From: Erysipelothrix larvae | GTDB lineage: Bacteria > Bacillota_I > Bacilli_A > Erysipelotrichales > Erysipelotrichaceae | Assembly: GCF_001545095.1 (NCBI RefSeq) | Contig: NZ_CP013213.1 | Coordinates: 2,430,001-2,462,000, forward strand | Length of the DNA: 32,000 nt | Reading direction: 5' to 3' | Shown here: positions 5,832 to 23,224 of the stretch, piece after piece | Position numbering within the stretch: the stretch's first letter is position 1 | Layout: each line of letters starts with the position of its first letter | Program-made: the position numbers and the translations under genes | The notes under the pieces: model-generated | Told to the model about the DNA's origin: nothing | Databases searched by the model: none | The model's input: only the letters and a program-made list of their open reading frames with translations

Positions 5832-6376
5832 AGTGTTCGCTCCCTTAAATATTCCCTAACTTTTGTTTTTGCATCATCTTGTATCTCAACAACTTCTGCA
5901 CCTCTTGATTTCGCAAGGACCCGTAAGTCATGCGCGATTGCTGTATGAAATGATGCGCCAATTACCAAGAAAACATCCCCACTTTGTAGTTCATTCACCA
6001 TTTCGTATGCTTTTGCATAATTTGGTGCAGGATCTTCATAAAGAACGGGTTTGTTCGTAAGTTGTGATGCATACACCAACTCTTCGTCAGTCGGTAAGGT
6101 ACCATGTAATGTTAATGGATTTGACCCTGCCAATTCATGTAAACCATCAATGTTCATAGTGATTATTGGAATGTTGTACTCAAAGAGGGCATGGTGGGCA
6201 TCGTTGGGCTTTTTATCACGCATCGAATTCACAAGCTGTGTGATCGTTTCGTTATAAGCTTGTGGATGTTGATTGGCAAACGAACGAAATAAACGTGCTC
6301 TTACTTCTGGTTTTTCCATAAAGGTGCTAATTCCAGAATCCTTACTGATTCCAGCTCCTGTAAATGCAAGTATCAT
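5828..6376 (-). CDS. Sir2-family NAD-dependent deacylase-like protein, short form with no zinc-ribbon module
   Basis: GAGISKDSGISTF (canonical GAGIS.ESGIPTF), ITMNIDGLHELAG (canonical QNIDGLH..AG), LHG with the catalytic His, and VFLVIGASF. It is only 182 aa and contains no Cys at all. RBS aaggagg. Confidence 0.65.
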   Translation of the reverse strand: MILAFTGAGISKDSGISTFMEKPEVRARLFRSFANQHPQAYNETITQLVNSMRDKKPNDAHHALFEYNIPIITMNIDGLHELAGSNPLTLHGTLPTDEELVYASQLTNKPVLYEDPAPNYAKAYEMVNELQSGDVFLVIGASFHTAIAHDLRVLAKSRGAEVVEIQDDAKTKVREYLRERTL

Positions 6377-6415: not shown

Positions 6416-7282
6416 TTAGTGTTCAATTAAATTAAGTGTTTCAAGAATACGGTTTAAATCTTCATCATCTTCAAATCGAATGGACACTGTATTCTTATCA
6501 ATATTTACACGTGTTTGAAGTTTCTTTTCGAATAGTGTTTTAGCATATGCGTAATGTTTAGTATTGTCATCTTTTTTAGGTGTTGGTTTCTCAGGTTGTT
6601 TGACAAGTTTCTCAACTTGACGTGCTGATAAGTCACCCTTCTTAATCTCTTTAGCAAGCCGTTCGATTTCCTTTGAGTCGTCCAATGTAATTAATGGTCG
6701 AACTTGTCCCATTGTAAGATCACCCTGGTTAACCATCATTTGAACGGATTCGGGAAGCTTCAACAAGCGTAATAAATTTGCGATATGACTTCTTGACTTG
6801 TGGACGCGTTTGGCAACCTCATCCTGTGTTAAATTGAGACGTTCCATCAACAATTGATAGCCATGTGCTTCATCGATAACACTGAGATCTTCACGTTGAA
6901 CGTTTTCCACAAGTGCTATTTCCATCATTTGTTGGTCATCAAAACCAACAACAATCGCACTTATTTCTTTGAGTCCTGCAAGTTTACTTGCGCGTAGACG
7001 ACGTTCTCCTGCAATTAATTCATAGCCTTTGTTGCTTTCTCTTACGAGTATTGGTGTGAAGAGTCCATGTTCCTTAATTGAATCTGCGAGTTCTTGTAGT
7101 TTCGCATCATCAAAATGACGGCGTGGTTGATATGGGTTAACACGAATCGTGTTGACCTTAAGCGATGTTTTTACACCCCCATATTCGTCATGTGACCCTG
7201 TTTGAATCTCTTCTAATACAGATGAAACATCATCACCAAATATGGCCCCTAGACCCTTCCCTAAACGATTACGATCAGACAT
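6416..7282 (-). CDS. parB: chromosome partitioning protein ParB/Spo0J
   Basis: ParB N-domain motifs NPYQPR and LIAGERRLRASKLAG, then an HTH (LTQDEVAKRVHKSRSHIANLLRLLKLP). It lies immediately downstream of parA. Confidence 0.9.
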   Translation of the reverse strand: MSDRNRLGKGLGAIFGDDVSSVLEEIQTGSHDEYGGVKTSLKVNTIRVNPYQPRRHFDDAKLQELADSIKEHGLFTPILVRESNKGYELIAGERRLRASKLAGLKEISAIVVGFDDQQMMEIALVENVQREDLSVIDEAHGYQLLMERLNLTQDEVAKRVHKSRSHIANLLRLLKLPESVQMMVNQGDLTMGQVRPLITLDDSKEIERLAKEIKKGDLSARQVEKLVKQPEKPTPKKDDNTKHYAYAKTLFEKKLQTRVNIDKNTVSIRFEDDEDLNRILETLNLIEH

Positions 7283-7283
7283 C

Positions 7284-8066
7284 TTACTTCACCTCTTCTT
7301 TATTGTAGTTGAGGACTTCTTTTGCAAGTGCTGCATAGGCTTTGGCACCTTCTGAACGTACATCATATTCAAAAATTGATGATCCTCGTGATGGTGCTTC
7401 ACTCAACTTAATATTTCTCGGTATATTACTCTTATAAACGCGTTCTTTAAAGTATTTTCGTACTTCTTGTTGAACTTCAACACTGAGTCGTGTTCTGACA
7501 TCGAACATCGTCAGTAACACCCCTTCAATTCTGAGCTCAGGGTTGAAGAGCTTTTGTACAAGTCGAATAGTGGAGAGAAGTTGTGTCAACCCTTCAAGTG
7601 CATAGTATTCACATTGCACAGGGATAATAACTGAGTCTGCTGCTGTTAATGCGTTGGTATTAAGGAGTCCAAGTGATGGTGGACAATCGATAATGATGAA
7701 GTCATACGCATCACGCACTTCTAACAGTTTATTTTTTAGTAAACGTTCTCTTCCTACTTTAAACTCAACCATTTCAAGGTCTGCACCTGCTAAGTCAATG
7801 GTCGCGGGGATTAAATCAAGTGGGGGTGTTTTGAGTGTTTGCACTACATCCCGCACTTGTGTATCTTGCCCTAATAATAAATCATATGTACTCTTTTTAA
7901 TTGTGCTACGGTTTGCGCCTACACCTTGAGTCGTATTCCCTTGTGGATCTAAATCAATCAAGAGTACACGTTGCCCTAAATACGCTAAGCCAGCTGCAAG
8001 ATTAATACTTGTAGTTGTCTTACCAACGCCCCCCTTTTGATTCGCTATGGCGATAATTTTACCCAC
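7284..8066 (-). CDS. parA: chromosome partitioning ATPase ParA/Soj
   Basis: Deviant Walker A motif KGGVGKTT, plus IIDCPPSLG. GTG start at 8066 preceded by gaggtg. Confidence 0.9.
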   Translation of the reverse strand: MGKIIAIANQKGGVGKTTTSINLAAGLAYLGQRVLLIDLDPQGNTTQGVGANRSTIKKSTYDLLLGQDTQVRDVVQTLKTPPLDLIPATIDLAGADLEMVEFKVGRERLLKNKLLEVRDAYDFIIIDCPPSLGLLNTNALTAADSVIIPVQCEYYALEGLTQLLSTIRLVQKLFNPELRIEGVLLTMFDVRTRLSVEVQQEVRKYFKERVYKSNIPRNIKLSEAPSRGSSIFEYDVRSEGAKAYAALAKEVLNYNKEEVK

Positions 8067-8086
8067 TTAACTCACCTCAGATCTTC

Positions 8087-8842
8087 CTATTTTGGAAAAC
8101 GCAATGTAATAATTACCGCATCATCCGTTTCTTCAATATCTTGTTCTACTTTAATCCCTGTTTTTGTCACCATCGCGACGGTTTGTTTGATGGAATTAAC
8201 GCCAATCTTAATACTTTGCGATATTCCTTTGAGAACAGGTTTCTTTTTCTTTTTTGGTTTTTGAACCAATATTTCTGTTTGTTTTACATTCAATTTATCA
8301 TTCACGATTTTATTGAGTGTTGGCATGATTTCATCCCGTTCAACTCCCAATAGTGCCCGTGCATGTCTTTCGGTAATTTGACGATTACCTAAAGCATCAA
8401 GCGCATCATCTGGAAGTTCTAATAATCGAATCTTATTTGCAATTGCAGATTGTGATTTCCCAACTTTAGCTGCTAACTCTTTTTGAGTGATGCCTTGAAT
8501 TCTTAACAGATCTCGATAGGCATTTGCTTCATCCACAACATTCAAGTCTTCGCGTTGAATGTTCTCAATAAGTGCGAGTGCTGCACTTTTTTGAGAGTCT
8601 ACATCTGCGATGATTGCGGGCACAGTAATACTCCCAGTTAAGAGCATTGCACGGTAGCGTCGTTCACCTGCTACAATTTCATAATTCCCATTATCAATTG
8701 GTCTTACTACGATTGGTTGAATCAGCCCATTTTCTCGGATTGATTGTGCCAATTCAAACAGATGTTCGTCATCAAATTGTGTTCGTGGTTGATAGCGATT
8801 TGGTACTACTTTTTCAATTGGCAACTCTACATTTCTATTCAT
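8087..8842 (-). CDS. noc: nucleoid occlusion protein Noc (ParB paralogue)
   Basis: It sits between rsmG and parA, as in Bacillus. Motifs VPNRYQPR, IVAGERRYRA and ITERHARALL, and a C-terminus KKKKKPVLKGISQSIKIGVNSIKQTV...ITLRFPK that resembles the B. subtilis Noc C-terminus as I remember it. Confidence 0.8.
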   Translation of the reverse strand: MNRNVELPIEKVVPNRYQPRTQFDDEHLFELAQSIRENGLIQPIVVRPIDNGNYEIVAGERRYRAMLLTGSITVPAIIADVDSQKSAALALIENIQREDLNVVDEANAYRDLLRIQGITQKELAAKVGKSQSAIANKIRLLELPDDALDALGNRQITERHARALLGVERDEIMPTLNKIVNDKLNVKQTEILVQKPKKKKKPVLKGISQSIKIGVNSIKQTVAMVTKTGIKVEQDIEETDDAVIITLRFPK

Positions 8843-9551
8843 ATTTCCTCCCTGATAATGGTGCTCTCTTTATTTTACCATAAGTTCTTGGGTATTGAGG
8901 GGGCGTCTTACACATTTTTAAAATCTCAAGGTTAATTCGCGTCCCTAATGTTTCGTTGAATTCTTTATGTACCGCTTTTAATTCGCCACCACACAGTGTG
9001 ATTGCTTTTTGTGAAACCGCATATTCTTGTTCTCCAGAAGCACCTTTCATCGCAATAAAAAGCCCCCCTACCTTAACAAGTGGCAAACACAGTTCGCTAA
9101 GAATGTCTAAATATGCTACAGCGCGTGCGGTACACACATCAAACAATTCTCTGTGTTTTTTCACAAAGTCTTCCGCTCTTTCATTATATACTGTTACATT
9201 TGATAAATGGCATGCTTGAATTACTTGATTCAGAAAATTACAACGTTTCAGAGTGGGTTCGACACAAGATATCGTAATATCTGGTCTTAGGATGGCAAGA
9301 ACTAATCCAGGAAACCCTGCACCACTTCCAATATCACAGACAAAAGACCCCTTTTTAATTAAGGGGTTAATAAGCATTGAATCATAGTAATGTTTTAAAT
9401 AAATCCCTTCATCATCATCAATGGCGGTTAGATTTAAAACCTGATTCACAGTTTGTATTAAATGTTTATACGTAAGGAGATTGTCACGTTTGTTTTCGTC
9501 TACTTCAATTCCTAACTTTTCTAATTCTATGATTAATGCTTCAAATGTCAT
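8835..9551 (-). CDS. rsmG: 16S rRNA (guanine527-N7)-methyltransferase RsmG (GidB)
   Basis: SAM-binding motif DIGSGAGFPGLVLAI, typical length, conserved neighbourhood. It overlaps noc by 8 nt. Confidence 0.9.
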   Translation of the reverse strand: MTFEALIIELEKLGIEVDENKRDNLLTYKHLIQTVNQVLNLTAIDDDEGIYLKHYYDSMLINPLIKKGSFVCDIGSGAGFPGLVLAILRPDITISCVEPTLKRCNFLNQVIQACHLSNVTVYNERAEDFVKKHRELFDVCTARAVAYLDILSELCLPLVKVGGLFIAMKGASGEQEYAVSQKAITLCGGELKAVHKEFNETLGTRINLEILKMCKTPPQYPRTYGKIKRAPLSGRKYE

Positions 9552-10525
9552 TAGCTATCAAATTCCAATCCTATTTGTCTCCGTGCTTCTTGGGCAACCT
9601 TTACTACATCGAGACTTTCTTGTAAGTACACATCTCGTAGTGCAAGGTCATTATTATCCACCATATTCACAAAAGTTTCAAGTTCATAATACAATCGTGG
9701 CATGGTTTGCTCTTTAATTTCTTTATCGCCTTGAGAAGAAATGAATTTGAGTTTTTCAAGACTATTCACACCATCCTCAATGTACACATACCCTTTTTCA
9801 CCTTGAATTTGTCCAAAATTCTTAGAGAAACTGTCTTTTGCACCAACTAATACTGCTTTAAAATTACCATAATCAAGGACTAAGATTCCAGAAAGGTCAA
9901 TGCCATTATCGTGGACATTTGCATCATACTTGATGCCTTTTGGTAAACCAAAGAGTCCCACTACAAAGTGAATGTTGTAGATGTTGATATCGGCTAGTGC
10001 ACCCCCTGAAAACGCAGGGTTAAAGACGTTGGGTAAGTCACCTTCTAAAAGTGCATCATAGCGACTTGAATACTGACTGTAGTTACATTGGATTAATTTT
10101 ATATCACCCAAACTTGCTAGGTTTTCTTTGAGTATATTAAAGTGAGGCATATGAATGTTACAGATTGCCTCCATGAGAATTAATCCTTTTTCTTGTGCTA
10201 AATTAATGAGTTCTTTAGCACGGGTTTGATTACCTGCAAATGGTTTTTCAACTAAAACATGTTTGCCACTCAAAAGTGCTTGTTTCGCTTGTGGATAGTG
10301 AAGACTGTTTGGAGATGCAATATAAATTGCATCCAATGTTTGATCCAATAACATCGTCTCTAAATCAGTATATACATTTGGAATATGCAGTTTGTCTGCA
10401 AATTGACGACCCGTTTCTTCACGACGTGAAAGTACTGCATCAAAAGATACTCCTTCATGGACTCTTGCTGAACGTATAAACGTTTCTACAATAACACCTG
10501 TCCCCACTACACCAAATCGAATCAT
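9551..10525 (-). CDS. Gfo/Idh/MocA-family NAD(P)-dependent oxidoreductase
   Basis: N-terminal Rossmann motif IRFGVVGTGVI, and HVLVEKP (the EKP motif). Its stop shares one nt with the rsmG start (TAATG). Its start is 4 nt after the mnmG stop, with gggagg inside the mnmG 3' end. Confidence 0.85.
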   Translation of the reverse strand: MIRFGVVGTGVIVETFIRSARVHEGVSFDAVLSRREETGRQFADKLHIPNVYTDLETMLLDQTLDAIYIASPNSLHYPQAKQALLSGKHVLVEKPFAGNQTRAKELINLAQEKGLILMEAICNIHMPHFNILKENLASLGDIKLIQCNYSQYSSRYDALLEGDLPNVFNPAFSGGALADINIYNIHFVVGLFGLPKGIKYDANVHDNGIDLSGILVLDYGNFKAVLVGAKDSFSKNFGQIQGEKGYVYIEDGVNSLEKLKFISSQGDKEIKEQTMPRLYYELETFVNMVDNNDLALRDVYLQESLDVVKVAQEARRQIGLEFDS

Positions 10526-10529
10526 GCTT

Positions 10530-12383
10530 TTAGGCCTCCCTTTGTTTCAACACCATTGCGAGAATCGTCAGATCTGCTGGATTTACACCTGAAATGCGTG
10601 ATGCTTGCCCCATTGTACGTGGCCGTACTAGGTTAAGTTTTTGTCTTCCCTCAATGGATAAGTTTTGAACCCCATCATAATCCATAGATTCAGGGAGTTC
10701 GATATTTTCCATTGCGCGTAACTTCTCAGCATCTTTCATCGCTTTACGAATATATCCCTCATATTTGATTTCAACCTCAGCTTGAAACGCAAGATCATGG
10801 CGTAGGTCATATCCTATAAGGTCAAGCAGTGCATCCAATTTAATCTCAGGACGTTTCACAGCTTCATAAAGTGTAAGGTCATGTGCTTCAAACGGTGAAT
10901 TATTTGATTCAAAGTAAGCACGCATCGCATCAGAACGATCTAGACGAATTTTCTTCGCTTCTTCTATAAATGCATCAATTGATTTTATTTCTTCTTTAAT
11001 TATCGCATATTCTTCATCATTTAGTAACCCAACTTCATGACCAAAATGAGATAACCGTCGATATGCGTTATCATGACGCAAAAGGAGGCGGTATTCTGCA
11101 CGTGATGTTAACAGTCGGTAAGGTTCTTTTGTTCCTTTAGTAACAAGATCGTCAATCATGACACCAATATATGCTTCATCACGTTTCAAGATCAATGGAT
11201 TTCTATTTTGGACCTTAAGTGCAGCATTAATTCCTGCCATGAGCCCTTGTCCTGCAGCTTCTTCATAGCCTGATGTTCCATTAATTTGTCCAGCTGTAAA
11301 TAAGCCTGGCACTCGCATTACTTCCAAGGAAGGACTGAGTTGTAAGGGATCAATTGCATCATACTCGATAGCGTACCCATACTTTTGAACTTCACAGTTT
11401 TCAAGCCCTGGGATGGTTCGCAACATTTGGTCTTGAACAGCTTCTGGTAAAGAAGATGACAACCCTTGAACGTATGTTGTATCAAGGTGTGCACTTTCTG
11501 GTTCTAAAAATATTTGATGACGCTTCTTATCAGCAAACCGTACAATCTTATCTTCGATTGATGGACAGTATCGCGCACCCACGCCTTCCACAACACCTGA
11601 ATACATACTTGATTTGTCAAGATTTGCAAGAATAATTTCATGGGTTTTCTCATTTGTATACGTTAAGTAACATGGATATTGCTCTTGAATCAGATCCTGT
11701 GGTTTGGTTTTATTTGAAAAAGTATACGGTTCTGTATCACCTGGTTGAATTTCAGTTTTTGAAAAGTCAATCGAACGTGTATAAACACGTGCAGGCGTTC
11801 CAGTTTTAAGTCTAAACGTTTTAAGGCCTAAAGCTCTGAGTGATTCTGAGAGTTTGTTGGTTGTTGGATCACCATCTGGTCCACTCTCAGTTACGCTTGA
11901 AGACACTAAAATCTTTGAGCTCATGTAGGTCCCCGATGTGATAATCACAGTCTTTGATTGAATCACTTCACCTTCAGATGTAATCACACCCACACATATG
12001 CCATTTTCAATGGCAATGCCTTCAACCATCTTTTGCACAACATCAATTCCTGGTTCATTTAATACAGCATCCCGCATGGCATGGGAATACTCAATCTTAT
12101 CGGATTGGACACGAAGACATTGAACTCCTGGTCCTTTGGACGAATTTAAAATACGGAATTGAAGGGCTGTTTTATCAGCAATTTTCCCCATCACTCCGCC
12201 TAAGCTTTCGATTTCACGAACTACGATTCCTTTTGCAGGTCCACCTACAGATGGATTACAGGGCATCGATGCAATGCGATCAACATTTAAGGTAAAGAGC
12301 GCTGTTTTTCGCCCCATACGTGCTGCAGCCACACTTGCTTCAACACCAGCATGACCACCGCCCACAACAATTACTTCATACAT
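10530..12383 (-). CDS. mnmG: tRNA uridine-5-carboxymethylaminomethyl synthesis enzyme MnmG (GidA)
   Basis: [18 protein letters not shown]-binding motif and full-length GidA-like sequence. Start at ATG 12383 (MYEV), 8 nt after gagagg; the track start is an upstream GTG. Confidence 0.95.
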
Positions 12384-12447
12384 AATAAACACCTCTCATG
12401 AATTTTAACACATTTACAGTAAAATACGATGCTAAAGTGCAATGATA

Positions 12448-12505
12448 TTGACAATGATACACACTAGTGTTACTGTATTATTGTAAATAGTACAGTTAGT
12501 ACACT
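12448..12505 (+). promoter_or_regulatory. candidate promoter plus dyad operator of the YtrA-type operon
   Basis: TTGACA at 12448-12453. Imperfect dyad AGTGTTACTGTA (12466-12477) / TACAGTTAGTACACT (12491-12505), which shares the arms AGTGT..ACTGTA in inverted orientation, just upstream of the RBS aaggag. Confidence 0.4.
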
Positions 12506-12520
12506 GAAAGGAGACGCCAT

Positions 12521-12880
12521 ATGTTCTCAATCGATTTAAGAAGCAATGTTCCAATCTTTGAACAACTCTATCAAGAAATCGGAAAGTATATTGCCTTGAG
12601 TATATTGAAACCTGACGAACAACTTCCCACTGTACGGTCTTTAGCAAAAGAATTGGGGATTAATCCCAATACTGTGTCAAAAGCCTACCAGGAAGCGGAG
12701 CGATCGGGTCTTATCTATTCAGTATCGGGGGTTGGGATGTTTGTATCTAATACTAGCGAAGGTGTGAAAGCAGTGCTTGCGAAAGCCTATGCTACACTTT
12801 TTGAGGCCTATAATGCCTTAATAGAATTGGGTGAAGCACCTGATGATATAATAAATACATTGAGGGGACTTAAATCATGA
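12521..12880 (+). CDS. GntR-family transcriptional regulator, YtrA subfamily (short, no effector domain)
   Basis: wHTH motif LPTVRSLAKELGINPNTVSKAYQEAERSGLIYSVSGVGMFV. It is 119 aa with only a short helical C-terminus. ATGA overlap with the ABC ATPase gene. Confidence 0.85.
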   Translation: MFSIDLRSNVPIFEQLYQEIGKYIALSILKPDEQLPTVRSLAKELGINPNTVSKAYQEAERSGLIYSVSGVGMFVSNTSEGVKAVLAKAYATLFEAYNALIELGEAPDDIINTLRGLKS

Positions 12881-13758
12881 TAAAACTATATAACGTCAGT
12901 AAATCATTTGACCAAAAACACATCCTAGAAGATATTAATTGGGAAGTGAAAGAGGGTCACATTGTTGGATTAGTTGGACCAAACGGTTCAGGTAAGTCAA
13001 CTTTACTTCGCTTAATCAGCGGTGTTATCGAACCCGATTGCGGTACCGTTCAAATAGATGGTATGGAAGTCTTTGAGAACGTCAAAGCGAAATCAAACAT
13101 CTTATTTTTAGGTGATGATCCGTATTTCTTCCAACAATCTACCTTAGAAGATATGCGTAATTTCTATACCAAGTTTTATCCAAACTTTGACAATACCATC
13201 TACACATCCTTAATCGGAGTGTTTAAGATTAATCCAAAAGAGAAAATCAATTCATTCTCTAAAGGGATGAAACGTCAATGCGCCTTAATCATTGCACTGT
13301 CATGTAAACCCGATATTTTACTGCTTGATGAAGCGTTTGATGGACTCGATCCTGTCATGCGTTTTAAACTCCGTCAGATTATCGCGGATTCAGTAGCGAC
13401 TCAAAACATCATCGCAATTATTTCATCCCACAACTTACGTGAACTTGAAGATATCTGCGATACGGTTGTAATGATTAACAATCGCACGCTTGCACTGGAC
13501 CATTCTTCTGAAGAAGTGCATGATCTGTATCATAAATACCAAGTGGTCTTTCATGAAGACACGGATATTAACTCAATTAAATCAATTAAACCGCTTCATG
13601 TTTCTGGGAAATCGCGGATATTCTCAATTATTATGAAAGGTCCAAAAGATACCTGTGACCAATTAATCGAAAGTCTAAACCCAGCATTATTTGAACGTAC
13701 AGGTGTATCCCTTGAGGAAGTGTTTGTTTACGAAGTGGAGGATTCCAACAATGCGTAA
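12877..13758 (+). CDS. ABC transporter ATP-binding protein
   Basis: Walker A GPNGSGKST, signature-like FSKGMKRQ, Walker B ILLLDEAFDGLD, H-loop SSH. Confidence 0.9.
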   Translation: MIKLYNVSKSFDQKHILEDINWEVKEGHIVGLVGPNGSGKSTLLRLISGVIEPDCGTVQIDGMEVFENVKAKSNILFLGDDPYFFQQSTLEDMRNFYTKFYPNFDNTIYTSLIGVFKINPKEKINSFSKGMKRQCALIIALSCKPDILLLDEAFDGLDPVMRFKLRQIIADSVATQNIIAIISSHNLRELEDICDTVVMINNRTLALDHSSEEVHDLYHKYQVVFHEDTDINSIKSIKPLHVSGKSRIFSIIMKGPKDTCDQLIESLNPALFERTGVSLEEVFVYEVEDSNNA

Positions 13759-15829
13759 TTTATTGAAAGCACGGATTAATTTAAATCTTCTAAAGCATAA
13801 CTTGAAAACACAAAGAGCTTATATTGTTCTCTTCACAGTGTTCTTCTTTGTTCTATTCCCTTCGTCAACTATTGTGAAGATACTCAGAAGGGATGGCTTT
13901 CCATCAATGCTTTCAGGCGATAGTGTGCCATTCGCATTGATTATCTTTACAGGTATGGTGATGTTCTTTATGCCTTTTATCACCCAAAGCTATCTCAACT
14001 CTAAAAAGGCAGTTGATGTCTATCATGCCCTTCCAATCACACGAAACGACTTATACCTAACAAACGCTTTCTCCAGTTTCATTATAGTTTATCTTCCATT
14101 TACAATTAACTATGTACTGGGATATAGCCTATTAGCAAGCCAAGGGGTAAATTTCGCTAACCACCATGTGTTTCTCTATTTTGCATTTGCAAGTATCTTG
14201 TTCTTTGCGATTCAAACCTGTAATAACTTTGTAATTATGAATACAGGAACCCTTGCCAACGGTTTAGTTCATGCATTCATTTTATTCATCGCACCCTTTG
14301 TTGCGTATGGCGCATTTACGTCGTTTGTGGAATCGTTCATCTTTGGCGTATCTGCCTTTGACGAAATGATCCTAAGCTATCTTTCACCATCGTATGGACT
14401 TCTTCGATTGATTGGTGTTCCATCAAAAAATCAAGTGCTCGTTGTTGGAACGGTGTGGCTTATTGTCTCTATTGGATTTACATGTTTCAATCTCAATCTC
14501 TATAATAAGCGTAAGTCGGAACGGTCTGAGGAACCCTTTACCAATCACCGTTATTTCCCACTTGTTGTATCACTATTTACGGGTCTGGTATTGACAGGAC
14601 TCATGTCTTTATTTACCTATAGTAATGACTCATCATCCAATAAAGGTTTGGCTGATTATCTAACGCTCAATACCTTCCTCATTCCGATGGGTATTTCATT
14701 TGTGATGTATATCGTCCTTGATTTCTTCAGATATAAATCCACGAAGCACTTTGCGAAAGCTGTGATCCACTATTTTATTATCGCTGCAACCACAGTATCG
14801 ATCTGTGTCGTACTAATCTTTACGAACCTACTGGGCTATGGAAACTTCATTCCATCAACACAGTCCATTCGTGAAGTAAAAGTCACTCACTATTCCGTCG
14901 TCTCTCAGTTATATCCGACATCCTATTATTATGACATTTCAAATTTAGTGTTAACCGAGGACCAATCCATTCAAGAGATTGTGAATTTCCATCACAAGAT
15001 CCTTAATTTCTATGATGAAAACCCTAATTTTGGGTATTACGATTCCGACTATACTTTTGAAAATGAAAACGCTCAAAAGGCTCCGGTTTCAAACATCGAT
15101 ACGATCTCTATTGAGTACAAAGTAAGGGGAGGGTTCACAGTATCTCGAAACTATAACATTCCATCCTCACTCAGCACAAGCCTTTACACACTCGCAAACA
15201 ACTGGGATGTCCAAACCTCAGCGCATAGAATCTTGAATCCTGAAGTCGTGTTGGACACAAACAGCGTGACCTTCTTCAACGCAACAATGACGAAAACACG
15301 GACCCTATCTTTCACCGAAAATGTTCGAACTGAATTTATCAATCGATACAAAGAAGATCTCAGTTCAATGGATGACGAAACCTTTGCGTTTGAGGAAAGC
15401 GAACTGAAGTACGTTCTTCAATATTCCGCCTATACTTATGATGCTCAACGAGACATTTACGCATCCAGTAACGTATCGACCCTTTTCATTGATTCACGAT
15501 TCAAATATACCGTGGATTATCTTGATTCGCTTATTGGTGGGGAAGAAACGATGAACCCTTCGGGGTCTTCATTTACGCTTGCGACATTCGGTGAAAACGA
15601 CATCGTGATTCCTCAATATGGCCTGCCATTTATTACAATTGATGACTTATACGGCTATGCAATACTTGATAGTCGATCATTGACCCGTGATGAAGCACAC
15701 GCATTGAGTTCAAACATCAACGGTCCACACCTAAGAACGACATCGAAGGCTGTATATGTTGTGACTGTTGGGTCTTCAACGTACTTCTTGCCTACAGACT
15801 TCACAACTACTTCAACAATCGATAACTAA
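13751..15829 (+). CDS. large polytopic membrane protein (putative ABC-2-type permease partner) with a ~300-aa C-terminal soluble domain
   Basis: Start set at ATG 13751 (ggagga 9 nt upstream, 8-nt overlap with the ATPase stop). About ten hydrophobic segments occupy the first ~390 aa, followed by a Tyr/Ser/Thr/Asn-rich non-membrane domain. From memory this architecture is annotated DUF6449 in Firmicutes; not verified. Confidence 0.7.
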   Translation: MRNLLKARINLNLLKHNLKTQRAYIVLFTVFFFVLFPSSTIVKILRRDGFPSMLSGDSVPFALIIFTGMVMFFMPFITQSYLNSKKAVDVYHALPITRNDLYLTNAFSSFIIVYLPFTINYVLGYSLLASQGVNFANHHVFLYFAFASILFFAIQTCNNFVIMNTGTLANGLVHAFILFIAPFVAYGAFTSFVESFIFGVSAFDEMILSYLSPSYGLLRLIGVPSKNQVLVVGTVWLIVSIGFTCFNLNLYNKRKSERSEEPFTNHRYFPLVVSLFTGLVLTGLMSLFTYSNDSSSNKGLADYLTLNTFLIPMGISFVMYIVLDFFRYKSTKHFAKAVIHYFIIAATTVSICVVLIFTNLLGYGNFIPSTQSIREVKVTHYSVVSQLYPTSYYYDISNLVLTEDQSIQEIVNFHHKILNFYDENPNFGYYDSDYTFENENAQKAPVSNIDTISIEYKVRGGFTVSRNYNIPSSLSTSLYTLANNWDVQTSAHRILNPEVVLDTNSVTFFNATMTKTRTLSFTENVRTEFINRYKEDLSSMDDETFAFEESELKYVLQYSAYTYDAQRDIYASSNVSTLFIDSRFKYTVDYLDSLIGGEETMNPSGSSFTLATFGENDIVIPQYGLPFITIDDLYGYAILDSRSLTRDEAHALSSNINGPHLRTTSKAVYVVTVGSSTYFLPTDFTTTSTIDN

Positions 15830-15840
15830 CGATTTAATCT

Positions 15841-15878
15841 AAAAAACGCATTGAGTTACGCGCTCAATGCGTTTTCTT
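15841..15878. terminator. bidirectional terminator between the permease gene and arsC
   Basis: aacgcattgag (15845-15855) pairs with ctcaatgcgtt (15863-15873). A-run upstream and T-run downstream, between convergent genes. Confidence 0.7.
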
Positions 15879-16269
15879 ATGGTTTCAATTTTTGTGCTAG
15901 CGCTTGTATTTTAGAATCAATGGCTTGGATTGTTTCTTTGAATACGTCATCCGTATGCCCTGATGGGTCATCCAACCCCCAATCTTCTCGCCATTCACAG
16001 GCTAAGGTTGGTCATTCAACATTACACCCCATTGTAATCACAATATCGAGTGCCGGTATCTCAGACAACACCTTTGAATTGTGTGTTTTTTCCATATCAA
16101 TGCCATACAATTCCTTCATGAGTCGTACAGCATCTTGATTGATCTGAGGTTTCGTTTCAGTTCCAGCACTATAACTCTCAAAAACATCTGAAGCATAATA
16201 CCTACCCAATGCTTCAGCGATTTGGCTTCGACATGAGTTATGCACACAAATAAATCCAACTTTTTTCAT
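15877..16269 (-). CDS. arsC: arsenate reductase, LMW-PTP/thioredoxin-coupled type, interrupted by a single in-frame TGA (16012-16014): Sec-recoding candidate or nonsense pseudogene
   Basis: MKKVGFICVHNSCRSQ (CX5R P-loop)...VITMGCNVE-TGA-PTLACEWREDWGLDDPSGHTDDVFKETIQAIDSKIQALAQKLKP-TAA. That is 130 sense positions with no frameshift, and the WGLDDP motif is retained downstream of the TGA. Start at ATG 16269, preceded by aaagga. Confidence 0.75.
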
Positions 16270-16299
16270 ACAATCCATCCTTTAACATTTATCATCTTA

Positions 16300-16329
16300 A
16301 CTATAGAAGAAACGTATGGACTGCGTCAA
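16300..16329 (-). promoter_or_regulatory. candidate sigma-A promoter for arsC
   Basis: Minus strand: TTGACG (16329-16324), 18 nt, TATAGT (16305-16300), located between the kinase stop and the arsC start. Confidence 0.4.
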
Positions 16330-16333
16330 GTCT

Positions 16334-17368
16334 TTATCTTTGTGTGTCAATATGTACTGTGAAGGTTGTCCCAACACCCAACTCACTATCAACATCAATG
16401 GTTCCATTAAGTAGTTCAACACACCGTGCTACAAGTGCCATTCCCAATCCATTCCCTTGTACAAATCGTGAAGTATCCCCTTGATAGAACTTCTCAAACA
16501 GTCTTTGTTTCGTTTCATTACTCATACCAACACCACTATCTGATATTCTAACCACAATCCCTTTATCTGTTGATGTTTGGGTAATTGATATGGTTCCTTT
16601 TGCATCTGTAAACTTTGTAGCATTGGATAAAAGGTTTCGCCAAATGATTGATACAATTGCAGGATCTTGATAAAGGGTAGCAACATCTTCGATATTTATC
16701 TCATAGTTGATATTTTTCGCTTCCCACATATCAACAAATGAGATAATACACTCTGACAGCTGTTCACACACATTATAAGATTCATGGGATGAGATAATGC
16801 CTTGATTTTCAAGCTTACTGAGTTGAAGGATATTGGTAACTAATACACTCAAATTCTGAGATGATTGCATTAAGAAGTGGGTATAATCCAGACGTTCTTC
16901 TTCACTGAGTTGCGGTTTTTGAAGCATTCGCGCATACCCTTGAATACTTGCAAGCGGGGTTTTTATTTCATGTGAAACACTGGCAATAAAGTCTGTCTTC
17001 ATCGTTTCTAACGACCCCAATGCTTCCACCATTTTATTGAAGTCTTTAAACATTTCGTTGATATAGTTTGCTTGGCTCAAAGACCTAATGGGTTTGAGGT
17101 AAATTGAAAAATCACCCGATGCGACTTTTCGTGTTGCTTCTCCAAGGATCATCATTGGATCTTCATACGCCTTTCTCCGTTGGTGATTTGTAAGAAAGGT
17201 AAAACCTGCAGCAACGATCAACCAATACAGAGCATAATACAACCCAAAAGGAAATATGTATTCTCGAAATTGTGCTCCATAAAAGATTGCTGGTAAAGCA
17301 CCCAGCAATGATAGCACAACAAAGGACCAGAAATACTCAATCCATGTGAAATAGATGCGTCGTTTCAT
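16334..17368 (-). CDS. sensor histidine kinase, intramembrane-sensing type (2 TM with a ~7-aa loop, HAMP, HisKA, HATPase_c)
   Basis: H-box SHEIKTPL, N-box LLSNATKFT, G-boxes DSGVGM and GNGLGMAL. The two N-terminal TM helices are separated only by GAQFREY. 4-nt overlap with the response regulator gene. Confidence 0.9.
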   Translation of the reverse strand: MKRRIYFTWIEYFWSFVVLSLLGALPAIFYGAQFREYIFPFGLYYALYWLIVAAGFTFLTNHQRRKAYEDPMMILGEATRKVASGDFSIYLKPIRSLSQANYINEMFKDFNKMVEALGSLETMKTDFIASVSHEIKTPLASIQGYARMLQKPQLSEEERLDYTHFLMQSSQNLSVLVTNILQLSKLENQGIISSHESYNVCEQLSECIISFVDMWEAKNINYEINIEDVATLYQDPAIVSIIWRNLLSNATKFTDAKGTISITQTSTDKGIVVRISDSGVGMSNETKQRLFEKFYQGDTSRFVQGNGLGMALVARCVELLNGTIDVDSELGVGTTFTVHIDTQR

Positions 17369-18036
17369 GTTAGCACCACCTTATACCCAAGCCCATGGAC
17401 TGTAACAATCTTAAACTCGGTAATCTCTGAACACTTATCCCTCAGTTTCGTAATGTATACATCCACAGCCCGTGGACTGGTATCTGTATCGACGTCCCAA
17501 AACTCATCCATCAATTGAGTGCGTGAAAATGTTTTATTGGGATAGGACAATAATTTATACAGGATGTTGAATTCACGTAAGGTGCAGGGTATTTCAGTCC
17601 CTTGATACGAAACTGTATTTGAGTTTGCATTAATTTCAAATTGGTTCATTGTTAGGGTACGGTTTGTATTAATATGAGCCCTTCGAAGTAAGGCATAGAC
17701 TCTCATTTCAAGTTCATCAAGATCGATGGGTTTGACCATATAATCATCAATCCCTATTTTAAATCCTTTTTGTTTTGATGCGATATCATCCCGAGCACTT
17801 ACAAATAGAATTGGAATTGTTTCATTGAGTTTACGGACGGTTTGCGCAAATTCAAACCCATCAATTCTAGGCATCATGACATCCGAGACTATCAAGTCAA
17901 AGGTATTGTTGTACATCGCATCATATGCTTCTTCACCATTAATACACCCTTCAACATCAAACCCACAGCCTCTTAAAAACTTACACATTAAATGATTCAT
18001 TTCATAATCATCTTCAACAATCAAGATTCGATTCAT
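17365..18036 (-). CDS. OmpR/PhoB-family response regulator
   Basis: Receiver domain (ILIVEDD, DLIVSDVMMP, KP) plus a winged-helix output domain (LREFNILYKLL...VDVYITKLRDK...VHGLGYK). Start at ATG 18036, 8 nt after ggagg. Confidence 0.9.
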   Translation of the reverse strand: MNRILIVEDDYEMNHLMCKFLRGCGFDVEGCINGEEAYDAMYNNTFDLIVSDVMMPRIDGFEFAQTVRKLNETIPILFVSARDDIASKQKGFKIGIDDYMVKPIDLDELEMRVYALLRRAHINTNRTLTMNQFEINANSNTVSYQGTEIPCTLREFNILYKLLSYPNKTFSRTQLMDEFWDVDTDTSPRAVDVYITKLRDKCSEITEFKIVTVHGLGYKVVLT

Positions 18037-18061
18037 TTCACACGCCTCCATCCACGATTTA

Positions 18062-18181: not shown

Positions 18182-18215
18182 TCTATACTTCATCATGTAA
18201 GGAGCGATGAACACC

Positions 18216-18737
18216 ATGGAAACAAAGAAAATATACGTATTACTTCAAGGCTATCAGTGTTTGTTTGGGGATGTCTATAAACGATTGAAAGGGACACAAT
18301 ATAATCATGCATCTTTGGGAATTGTAGACTCAATGGATGAATTCTATAGTTTTAGATCAAAATGGGGTCTGTGCATTGAACATCCCTTTCGATTCAATAA
18401 ACCCTATAAAAAAGATGTTCAGTGTATGATTTACGAAATTGAAGTAACATCACAACAATATTCAGAAATACAAGAGACAATTCAGTCTTATTTGAATCAA
18501 CGTGAACACTTCCACTTCTCATATACAAGCCTCTTGTTAGGATTTCTCGGCATTCGGCACAATTTTAAACAGGGTTACACTTGTTCAAAATTCGTGGCTG
18601 AGGTCTTAGAGAAGAGCGGGGTAATGTCAATTGGAAAGCATACTTCGTTATGTTTACCTACCGATTTTGAAAACACACTGACGTTGACACACTATGAAGG
18701 TCTTGCGAGAAATTACAAAAGTTCTCTAGATTATTAA
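18216..18737 (+). CDS. permuted papain-like / NlpC-P60-superfamily protein (YiiX/C92-like), function unknown
   Basis: The order His...His...Cys (YNHASLG, IEHPF, GYTCSKFVAEVLEKSG) resembles permuted NlpC/P60 (YaeF/YiiX) enzymes. ATG 18216 is preferred over 18207, which lies only 2 nt after ggag. Confidence 0.5.
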   Translation: METKKIYVLLQGYQCLFGDVYKRLKGTQYNHASLGIVDSMDEFYSFRSKWGLCIEHPFRFNKPYKKDVQCMIYEIEVTSQQYSEIQETIQSYLNQREHFHFSYTSLLLGFLGIRHNFKQGYTCSKFVAEVLEKSGVMSIGKHTSLCLPTDFENTLTLTHYEGLARNYKSSLDY

Positions 18738-18799
18738 CACCTTAACAATTCAGAAACATCCTTACGCTATAATGCAAACAAAGAAAAGAGGAACTTTAT

Positions 18800-19333
18800 A
18801 TGAAAGCAATGAATGAAGAAAAAAATTTTGTAGGTTATGAATACCAAGATGTTACAGTAAAAAATGCCTATGTGAATCTCTACGTCGATTCATACGAAAA
18901 TTTTGGATGGGAATTTGAAGACAAGAAAAGTGCAACACATAATGTAGGGAGTACAACGCTTGTATTTAAACGTGATCGTAAAATTCGCAATAAAGCAGAA
19001 TTAACCCGTCTTCAAAGACAGTTTGACTCCCTTGTTGAGCAAGTCGATCACCTTGAAACAAAGAAGGTTTTTAAAGCGTCTGCAATTGCATATATACTTG
19101 GGGTTATAGGATGTGGTTTTATGGCTGCTTCTGTAATGGTTATGTCATTTCTAAGTAATACTATGCTCATGATCATCCTTGCAATCCCTGGTGTGATTCT
19201 ATGGATTATTCCATACCTTGTATTTAGACACATCAAGAATCAATCAACCCTTGAGGTAACACCAATGATTGATGAAAAATACGATGAAATCTACGATGTC
19301 TCAATGCGTGCAAACAGCCTTCTTAGTGTATAG
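18800..19333 (+). CDS. membrane protein: N-terminal soluble domain, coiled segment, 2 TM (unknown function)
   Basis: RBS agagga 7 nt upstream. TM segments AIAYILGVIGCGFMAASVMVMSF and MLMIILAIPGVILWIIPYLVF. I recognise no family. Confidence 0.6.
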   Translation: MKAMNEEKNFVGYEYQDVTVKNAYVNLYVDSYENFGWEFEDKKSATHNVGSTTLVFKRDRKIRNKAELTRLQRQFDSLVEQVDHLETKKVFKASAIAYILGVIGCGFMAASVMVMSFLSNTMLMIILAIPGVILWIIPYLVFRHIKNQSTLEVTPMIDEKYDEIYDVSMRANSLLSV

Positions 19334-19343
19334 CGCCACTATC

Positions 19344-19366
19344 AAACACCTTCGGGTGTTTTTTTG
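19344..19366 (+). terminator. Rho-independent terminator
   Basis: aaacacc-ttcg-ggtgttt followed by a T-run. Confidence 0.7.
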
Positions 19367-19536
19367 TCTTAAATTAAATGCGGACCCTTTATTACTCAAA
19401 TTTCTGTTATCCACCCTTCACTTATCTCAAAAAAATTTCAATGTATGGATTATTAATATTTCATAAACATACCTACAACACCAATGAAACATTTGTTCGA
19501 TATTATGAGTCTGTCAAAAGAAAAGAGGAACAGATT

Positions 19537-19866
19537 ATGAAACTGACAAAAGTTATCGATGCATTATTTATTGGAACACGTTATGGAAGTTGGGGAATGG
19601 GTGTACTGGGTATAATTCTATCGGTCATCCTTGCTTTCGCAAACTTATCAATGGGACTTGGCCCTACATTACTCTGCGTTGCCGCCTTGTTTGTATCCCT
19701 TGGAATCACGGTCTTACTCGCACCACAAAAGTTATCCGATAGATTTATGAAGTCCAATAATAAAGTCACTGCGGGGGTTGTTTGTATTTTAGGTGCTGCA
19801 ATCATAGCGGGGCTAACCTATTATACAAACGGTGGCTTTCCCATTATGAATTTGTTGTTCATCTAG
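19537..19866 (+). CDS. small 3-TM membrane protein (109 aa), unknown function
   Basis: ATG 19537 is preceded by aaaagagga; the track ORF begins upstream without an RBS. Hydrophobic segments GMGVLGIILSVILAF, LLCVAALFVSLGITVLL and GVVCILGAAIIAGL. Confidence 0.55.
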   Translation: MKLTKVIDALFIGTRYGSWGMGVLGIILSVILAFANLSMGLGPTLLCVAALFVSLGITVLLAPQKLSDRFMKSNNKVTAGVVCILGAAIIAGLTYYTNGGFPIMNLLFI

Positions 19867-23166: not shown

Positions 23167-23224
23167 AAAAAAAATAAACCAAAGTCCTTTTGAACACACT
23201 TGTTCAGCGTTAACTTTGGTTTAT
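23167..23224 (-). terminator. terminator after the Fur-family gene
   Basis: ataaaccaaagt (23174-23185) pairs with actttggtttat (23213-23224). On the minus strand a run of 8 U follows. The loop is large and has an inner hairpin. Confidence 0.55.

Follow-up and report, generated by a model that had tools for sequence, protein, structure and literature searches.

The arsC reading frame of Erysipelothrix larvae, which lies near the middle of the 32,000-nt stretch of DNA analyzed here (hereafter, the window) and is interrupted by a single in-frame TGA, is best explained as a pseudogene of an orphan thioredoxin-type arsenate reductase. In this reading, to which we give a probability of about 0.85, a Cys codon became a stop before the split of the two strains sequenced to date, and too little time has since elapsed for further lesions to accumulate. 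The mutation would have altered one base in the codon for the third cysteine of the catalytic relay, so that TGT or TGC became TGA, and it would inactivate arsC; translation most likely stops at the UGA and yields a fragment of 85 residues. The first-pass annotation of this DNA had favored a different explanation, the recoding of the TGA as selenocysteine (Sec), and had kept a very recent Cys-to-stop mutation or a sequencing error as its alternative. The evidence that has led us to reverse this order of preference is presented below, and the features concerned are collected in Table 1.

Table 1. Features of the arsC locus of E. larvae discussed in the text (positions are those of the window).
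Feature	Position	Strand	Description and basis
Whole arsC reading frame	15877..16269	-	130 sense positions and TAA, one TGA inside; translation, Pfam, PDB alignments
In-frame TGA replacing the Cys86 codon	16012..16014	-	Homologue and PDB alignments; codon counts in homologues
N-terminal ORF, 85 codons	16012..16269	-	Product if UGA terminates; has P-loop and Cys82
44 codons 3' of the TGA	15880..16011	-	Still open; translation, alignment
Proposed SECIS-like stem-loop	15972..16011	-	Loop UGUGAAU (+13..+19) on a 3-bp inner stem, with an outer stem formed by +1..+7/+34..+40
Strong bidirectional intrinsic terminator	15843..15875	.	14-bp stem, then T run
Promoter-like site	16300..16329	-	TTGACG-18-TATAGT, 10/12; in the 64-nt gap between histidine-kinase stop and arsC ATG
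HisKA/HATPase_c sensor kinase	16334-17368	-	Upstream of arsC; Pfam
OmpR-type response regulator	17365-18051	-	Upstream of arsC; Pfam

On the minus strand the frame opens with an ATG at 16269, 5' of which there is a Shine-Dalgarno sequence (AAAGGA), and reads MKKVGFICVHNSCRSQ...DIVITMGCNVE up to the TGA at 16014-16012; thereafter it continues through 44 open codons (PTLACEWREDWGLDDP...KLKP / PTLACEWREDWGLDDPSGHTDDVFKETIQAIDSKIQALAQKLKP) to a TAA at 15879-15877. The TGA is the sole defect, and the frame is not shifted at any point. Translation thus bore out, to the exact coordinate, the earlier description of an otherwise intact arsC of 130 positions, as well as the survival of the WGLDDP motif among the 44 codons 3' of the TGA. 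When a Cys is restored at the interrupted codon, the 130-residue product has a match to the Pfam family LMWPc (PF01451; E 1.4e-16) that extends from residue 4 to residue 124, and it can be aligned with the PDB entries 3t38, 1ljl, 1jl3, and 2l17, the first of these over residues 3-126 with the MGCxxxCP motif kept. Its CX5R P-loop (C8-V-H-N-S-C-R14) is invariant in the alignment of homologues. The NCBIfam models for the thioredoxin- and glutaredoxin-type ArsC of the low-molecular-weight phosphatase (LMW-PTP) fold are matched at 67-78 bits, and since this is far under their equivalog cut-offs of 157-215, the E. larvae gene belongs to a separate subfamily. This subfamily is the one whose members NCBI names "arsenate reductase ArsC" in the Clostridia, Fusobacterium, and the Erysipelotrichaceae; thousands of proteins so named, from these groups and from the Bacilli, are 70-80% identical to the arsC product, and for the best full-length homologues the figure is 72-80%. 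As judged from these sequence matches, the frame is that of a thioredoxin-type arsenate reductase of the LMW-PTP fold, which we read as a pseudogene.

The fold family PF01451 also includes the structurally characterized ArsC of pI258 (1LJL), that of Bacillus subtilis (1JL3), and ArsC1' of Corynebacterium glutamicum (3T38). With such thioredoxin-coupled enzymes the E. larvae sequence shares the CX5R loop with its nucleophilic Cys8, Cys82 within "MGC", the site of the "CP" motif, and DWGLDDP; it differs from them in having TGA as its third Cys codon and in not being part of an ars operon. When 13 homologues are aligned, the column of the TGA holds Cys throughout and the next column Pro throughout, and the former position (Cys86) aligns with Cys89 of the Staphylococcus aureus pI258 enzyme and with Cys166 of C. 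glutamicum ArsC1'. We take it to be the third, resolving Cys of the relay that hands the disulfide to thioredoxin. The spacing between Cys82 and Cys86 is of four residues, as in ArsC1' (Cys162/Cys166), whereas it is of seven in the pI258 enzyme (Cys82/Cys89). The structural alignment therefore agrees with the original proposal that the TGA stands in place of the CP-motif relay Cys of a thioredoxin-type ArsC. Of the last two cysteines in the consensus given earlier for this segment (GCNV.CP...C), that of the CP motif is invariant but the following one is not, residue 91 (15997-15999) being Ser, Tyr, or Ala in the homologues L014, L036, L044, L046, L047, L053, L057, and L081. Because Cys82 and Cys86 are invariant and Cys91 is not, the relay can be assigned as C8-C82-C86. 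Cys82 is still encoded in E. larvae, and with TGA as the third relay codon the three-Cys enzyme is not encodable under the standard code.

The position of the lesion speaks against a chance mutation, and it is useful to ask how great a coincidence it represents. The TGA is one base away from both TGT and TGC, and the other four Cys codons of arsC are all TGT. There are 63 ways by which a single base change can create a nonsense codon in arsC, five of them at Cys codons and three at the relay cysteines. That a chance nonsense mutation should land on a Cys codon is thus roughly a 1-in-12 event, a coincidence of 5-8%, and coincidences of such a size are to be expected occasionally when whole genomes are screened for the TGA-at-Cys signature.

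The simplest objection to any biological reading is that the true codon is TGT or TGC and that the TGA is an error of sequencing or assembly, for which a single wrong base would suffice. A second strain of E. larvae (L001; Logan assembly SRR6161627) is represented by a 97-kb contig that is collinear with the window. Between positions 6012 and 26268 the two sequences have 99.5% DNA identity, with 101 differences in 20,258 nt (100 substitutions and 1 indel), and L001 is consequently a different strain. The segment 15722-16927, which includes all of arsC and the TGA, is identical in both. An identical TGA in a second, independently assembled strain means that it is neither a sequencing error, a reading that is hereby effectively refuted, nor a mutation private to one strain. 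The alternative that the first-pass annotation held in reserve has therefore fared well in its essential part, the change from Cys to stop; its qualifications, "very recent" in the sense of strain-private and possible sequencing error, have not. The mutation would be older than the ancestor that the two sequenced strains share. A comparison of substitutions between the two arsC sequences is uninformative, as they have none and SNP-free runs of >1 kb are common in this strain pair. The differences between the strains are clumped, with SNP-free stretches of 0.9-1.8 kb (for example, 12091-13898 and 15722-16927), and the one indel, of 1 nt, is at 23175 between a MerR and a Fur gene.

A code in which UGA specifies Trp (code 4), as used by the related Mollicutes, was also considered and is excluded by the stop codon usage of the window. 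Its 34 ORFs end in TAA (20), TGA (9), or TAG (5), and those other than arsC are uninterrupted. TGA is accordingly a genuine stop in this genome, as had been supposed.

If the UGA were instead decoded as Sec, SelB and tRNA-Sec would act through a stem-loop in the mRNA and the product would be a full-length ArsC with Sec as its resolving residue. Such a reading has attractions: the TGA falls exactly on a conserved redox Cys, the frame downstream is intact, the stop is kept in two strains, and there is a stem-loop immediately 3' of the UGA. Nonetheless, we consider recoding very improbable, and the same low odds apply to the form that it would have to take, namely a very young, lineage-specific conversion of Cys to Sec in a single species whose decoding machinery is present or was recently acquired. 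The most direct evidence comes from the homologues. The best 80 genomic loci, confirmed by tblastn in a collection of one genome for each of 185,579 species, are 69-76% identical and span numerous Bacillota along with a few further phyla. All 80 have Cys at the position of the TGA; of the 73 codons counted, 37 are TGT, 36 are TGC, and none is TGA. The comparison of orthologous codons that had been suggested as a check has thus gone against a conserved TGA. Fusobacterium ulcerans, of which strain ATCC 49185 is listed as having the Sec trait (Table S2 of PMC5029168), has TGC at this codon (L045).

Searches that were directed specifically at the TGA gave a similar picture. An exact degenerate pattern (G-C-N-[V/I/M]-x-TGA-P-x3-C-x3-E-D-W-G), which has one match in the window, has none elsewhere in the 185,579 species genomes, the source genome itself aside. 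A relaxed version of the pattern found a single match in 241 million metagenome records, on the minus strand of L082:1-330 (Ga0334898_1002507), which reads SRLLSPVDIVVTMGCNVS-stop-PFLPCSHREDWGLNDP... with TGA at the same Cys codon. This locus retains only the final ~60 codons of arsC, situated directly behind the end of an HD-GYP-type frame (HHEHWDGTGYP), and as it is without the P-loop half it is clearly a pseudogene, the remnant of a decayed arsC. A further disrupted frame was noted in an Erysipelotrichaceae MAG (L042; JAAYWN010000199.1, ~862-864), in which GAA has become an in-frame TAA (…TGASD-stop-VFIE…) at a residue that is Glu in L034, whose protein is identical in all other respects; L042 is either an independent nonsense-disrupted arsC in a relative or an assembly error. 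Both loci resemble that of E. larvae in having a single in-frame stop within a recognizable arsC, which in L082 is even at the same codon; the E. larvae gene, however, is complete except for its stop, whereas L082 has also lost its 5' half.

The RNA downstream of the UGA provides no better case for recoding. Both of the pairings that had been claimed for it, CCAACC(U) with (G)GGUUGG and the compact hairpin at +6..+25, can indeed form, and the conjecture that the hairpin fits a bacterial SECIS failed against published constraints. In the bSECIS model the apical loop has 3-9 nt with a G within its first two positions, the upper stem has 4-16 bp, the distance from UGA to loop is 16-37 nt, and the MFE is <= -7.5 kcal/mol (PMC13188914). 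The proposed hairpin does have a G at loop position 2; its spacing of 12 nt, its stem of 3 bp in the MFE fold (6 bp if a bulge is allowed), and its energy of -3.8 kcal/mol all fail. The larger 40-nt stem-loop has an energy of -11.2 kcal/mol. The 60 nt 3' of the UGA fold with an MFE of -17.5 kcal/mol, which is unexceptional (z = -0.86), since 34 of 200 dinucleotide shuffles fold as well; among 80 Cys-encoding homologues the median for the same 60 nt is -17.2, and 35 of them fold at least as well as E. larvae. We also ran a loose implementation of our own of the bSECIS model on the same 78-nt segment of E. larvae and of the 80 Cys-encoding homologues. E. larvae yields some weak candidates that pass; 66 of the 80 homologues pass as well, and passing the model in this loose form is therefore uninformative. 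The pairing of CCAACC with GGUUGG is made up of Pro-Thr codons and of the Gly-Leu codons of the conserved WGL, and hence represents nothing beyond the structure of a coding sequence. We judge that this stem-loop is probably not a SECIS.

What is known of the distribution of Sec points the same way. No tRNA and no Rfam family, tRNA-Sec and SECIS included, was found by Rfam and ARAGORN in the 32-kb window, which is a small part of the genome. The list of Sec-utilizing bacteria compiled from ~5,200 genomes in a 2016 survey, to which E. larvae did not belong (Peng et al., Table S2 of PMC5029168), has no Erysipelothrix, Holdemania, Turicibacter, Solobacterium, Bulleidia, or other member of the Erysipelotrichia, and its "Firmicutes/others" block consists only of Negativicutes and three unnamed Firmicutes genomes (PMC5029168). 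Literature searches linking Erysipelothrix or the Erysipelotrichia to selenocysteine or to selenophosphate synthetase gave nothing relevant, and the deep-Sep supplements contain no Erysipelothrix entry and no PF01451 family. We infer from these relatives that the Sec machinery is probably missing from the E. larvae genome. Furthermore, in the compiled selenoprotein family lists that were consulted, neither PF01451 nor the phosphotyrosine-phosphatase families appear. Arsenate reductases that contain Sec do exist; they have the same nominal function as ArsC, with Sec in place of a redox Cys (PMC1088965, PMC13188914). Their fold, however, is unrelated (COG1393 ArsC), and their Sec occupies the catalytic site near the N-terminus: the arsenate reductase selenoproteins of the Sargasso Sea are COG1393/TIGR00014 proteins with a UxxS motif, and the arsenate reductase-like family NF041106 has UxxC (PMC1088965, PMC13188914). 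Neither TIGR00014 nor NF041106 is matched by the E. larvae product in NCBIfam. These families contain many TGA-bearing sequences, 14 of them from the Sargasso Sea, each with a stable stem-loop downstream (PMC1088965, PMC13188914), whereas the E. larvae TGA is found in one species and is accompanied by no distinctive RNA structure. Because the known Sec arsenate reductases are unrelated, recoding in E. larvae would constitute a new selenoprotein family of a single species, which lowers its prior probability. In sum, with a TGA unshared by the 80 homologues, a hairpin outside the bSECIS limits, and a class absent from the list of Sec users, the headline claim of the first-pass annotation is not sustained.

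The 44 codons beyond the TGA carry no second lesion and keep all 16 of the invariant family positions in this segment (P87, L89, C91, E95-L99, D101, P102, G104, D107, F110, I114, I117, and L124). In a comparison of N-terminal with C-terminal identity over 187 homologues they are slightly over-diverged, with a mean residual of -0.057 that ranks 26th of 188 and, at ~1 SD, is not outlying. Intact and conserved downstream codons are accommodated equally well by a young pseudogene and by a frame that is still translated. On the pseudogene reading, they would still be intact and conserved because the mutation is young relative to the history of the gene, and the observations fit a mutation that is young when compared with the 20% protein divergence that separates E. 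larvae arsC from its nearest homologue.

The second of these possibilities could be realized without Sec if termination were leaky, a few ribosomes inserting Trp or another near-cognate residue at the UGA so as to produce a functionally meaningful amount of full-length protein. UGA followed by C terminates weakly in both Escherichia coli and B. subtilis. The context here is TGA-C, the frame beyond it is intact and conserved, and the terminator, which arsC shares with a convergent ORF of 712 aa, lies immediately beyond the TAA that closes the full-length frame. We nevertheless regard functional readthrough as unlikely, although less so than recoding. There is no sign that readthrough has been selected or has a function. 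Of the window's nine genuine TGA stops, one also has C as its next base, and no arsenite pump is near to serve as a partner. Moreover, Trp at the position of the resolving Cys would abolish the relay disulfide, and a readthrough protein could perform the first steps of the reaction but not thioredoxin-coupled turnover.

A functional role for the 85-residue product itself, for example as a P-loop-only phosphatase or as a regulator tied to the two-component system upstream, appears still less credible than recoding. It is true that the CX5R P-loop and Cys82 are still present in the fragment, that its ORF comes with a Shine-Dalgarno sequence and a promoter-like site of its own, and that it is conserved in two strains. 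The promoter-like site is a consensus match only, and the number of such sites equals the expectation from shuffled sequence. When the N-terminal 85 aa were compared with 5.8 billion protein clusters, no other product among the 120 best matches ended at the site of the TGA, an observation that argues equally against Sec; after the E. larvae fragment itself came full-length proteins, and the three short ones (92-100 aa) all extend past the Cys-Pro and end later. The 85-aa product is recorded only in Logan SRR6161627, as a cluster of one member, and is 90% identical to P0001 over the part that they share. Finally, the fragment ends before WGLDDP and is thereby deprived of the C-terminal third of ArsC; this segment and all that follows it are kept in the homologues without exception and in the aligned ArsC structures. 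To judge from those alignments, a product so truncated would not be a working arsenate reductase.

The surroundings of the gene make the loss of such an enzyme easier to understand. Among the identified genes in the ~20 kb around arsC there is no arsenic gene, be it an ArsR, an arsenite pump, or a partner thioredoxin. In two loci from the Erysipelotrichaceae, that of Amedibacillus dolichus (L049) and L050, an operon of the composition ArsR-ArsP permease-Thioredoxin_3-ArsC ends with arsC, and in L002 the gene follows Acr3-ArsD-ArsA. An orphan arsC that has neither a pump nor a thioredoxin to work with could plausibly decay. In E. larvae it stands next to a two-component system with no ArsR, pump, or thioredoxin nearby, and the loss of its function would therefore have been cheap.

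Other aspects of the neighborhood may be recorded here. Convergent on arsC, on the plus strand (12521-15829), are a GntR regulator (12521-12880), an ABC ATPase (12877-13758), and the 712-aa ORF already mentioned (13691-15829), which has no Pfam match, starts 68 nt inside the ATPase gene, and is probably the membrane component of an ABC transporter. Divergent from the response regulator are three plus-strand ORFs (18207-19866) of 176, 177, and 162 aa; they are not paralogous to each other, and apart from one weak DUF2207_C match they have no confident Pfam assignment. The minus-strand genes at 6416-12392 are mnmG (GidA), a GFO/IDH/MocA oxidoreductase, rsmG (GidB), a ParB-like gene, ParA/Soj, and ParB/Spo0J, a set of origin-proximal genes from which it can be concluded that the window adjoins the replication origin region of E. 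larvae.

Were the Sec reading true after all, E. larvae arsC would give the LMW-PTP fold its first selenoprotein and the bacterial selenoproteome a new fold, and it would reveal the use of Sec in a class for which the 2016 survey recorded none (PMC5029168). As a pseudogene it is of little import in itself, the dead and orphaned arsC of a species from the beetle gut. It is, however, a useful negative control for those screens that search for selenoproteins by means of Cys/TGA pairs: a TGA at a catalytic Cys within an intact frame is insufficient unless it is accompanied by recurrence elsewhere, a distinctive SECIS, and the Sec machinery.
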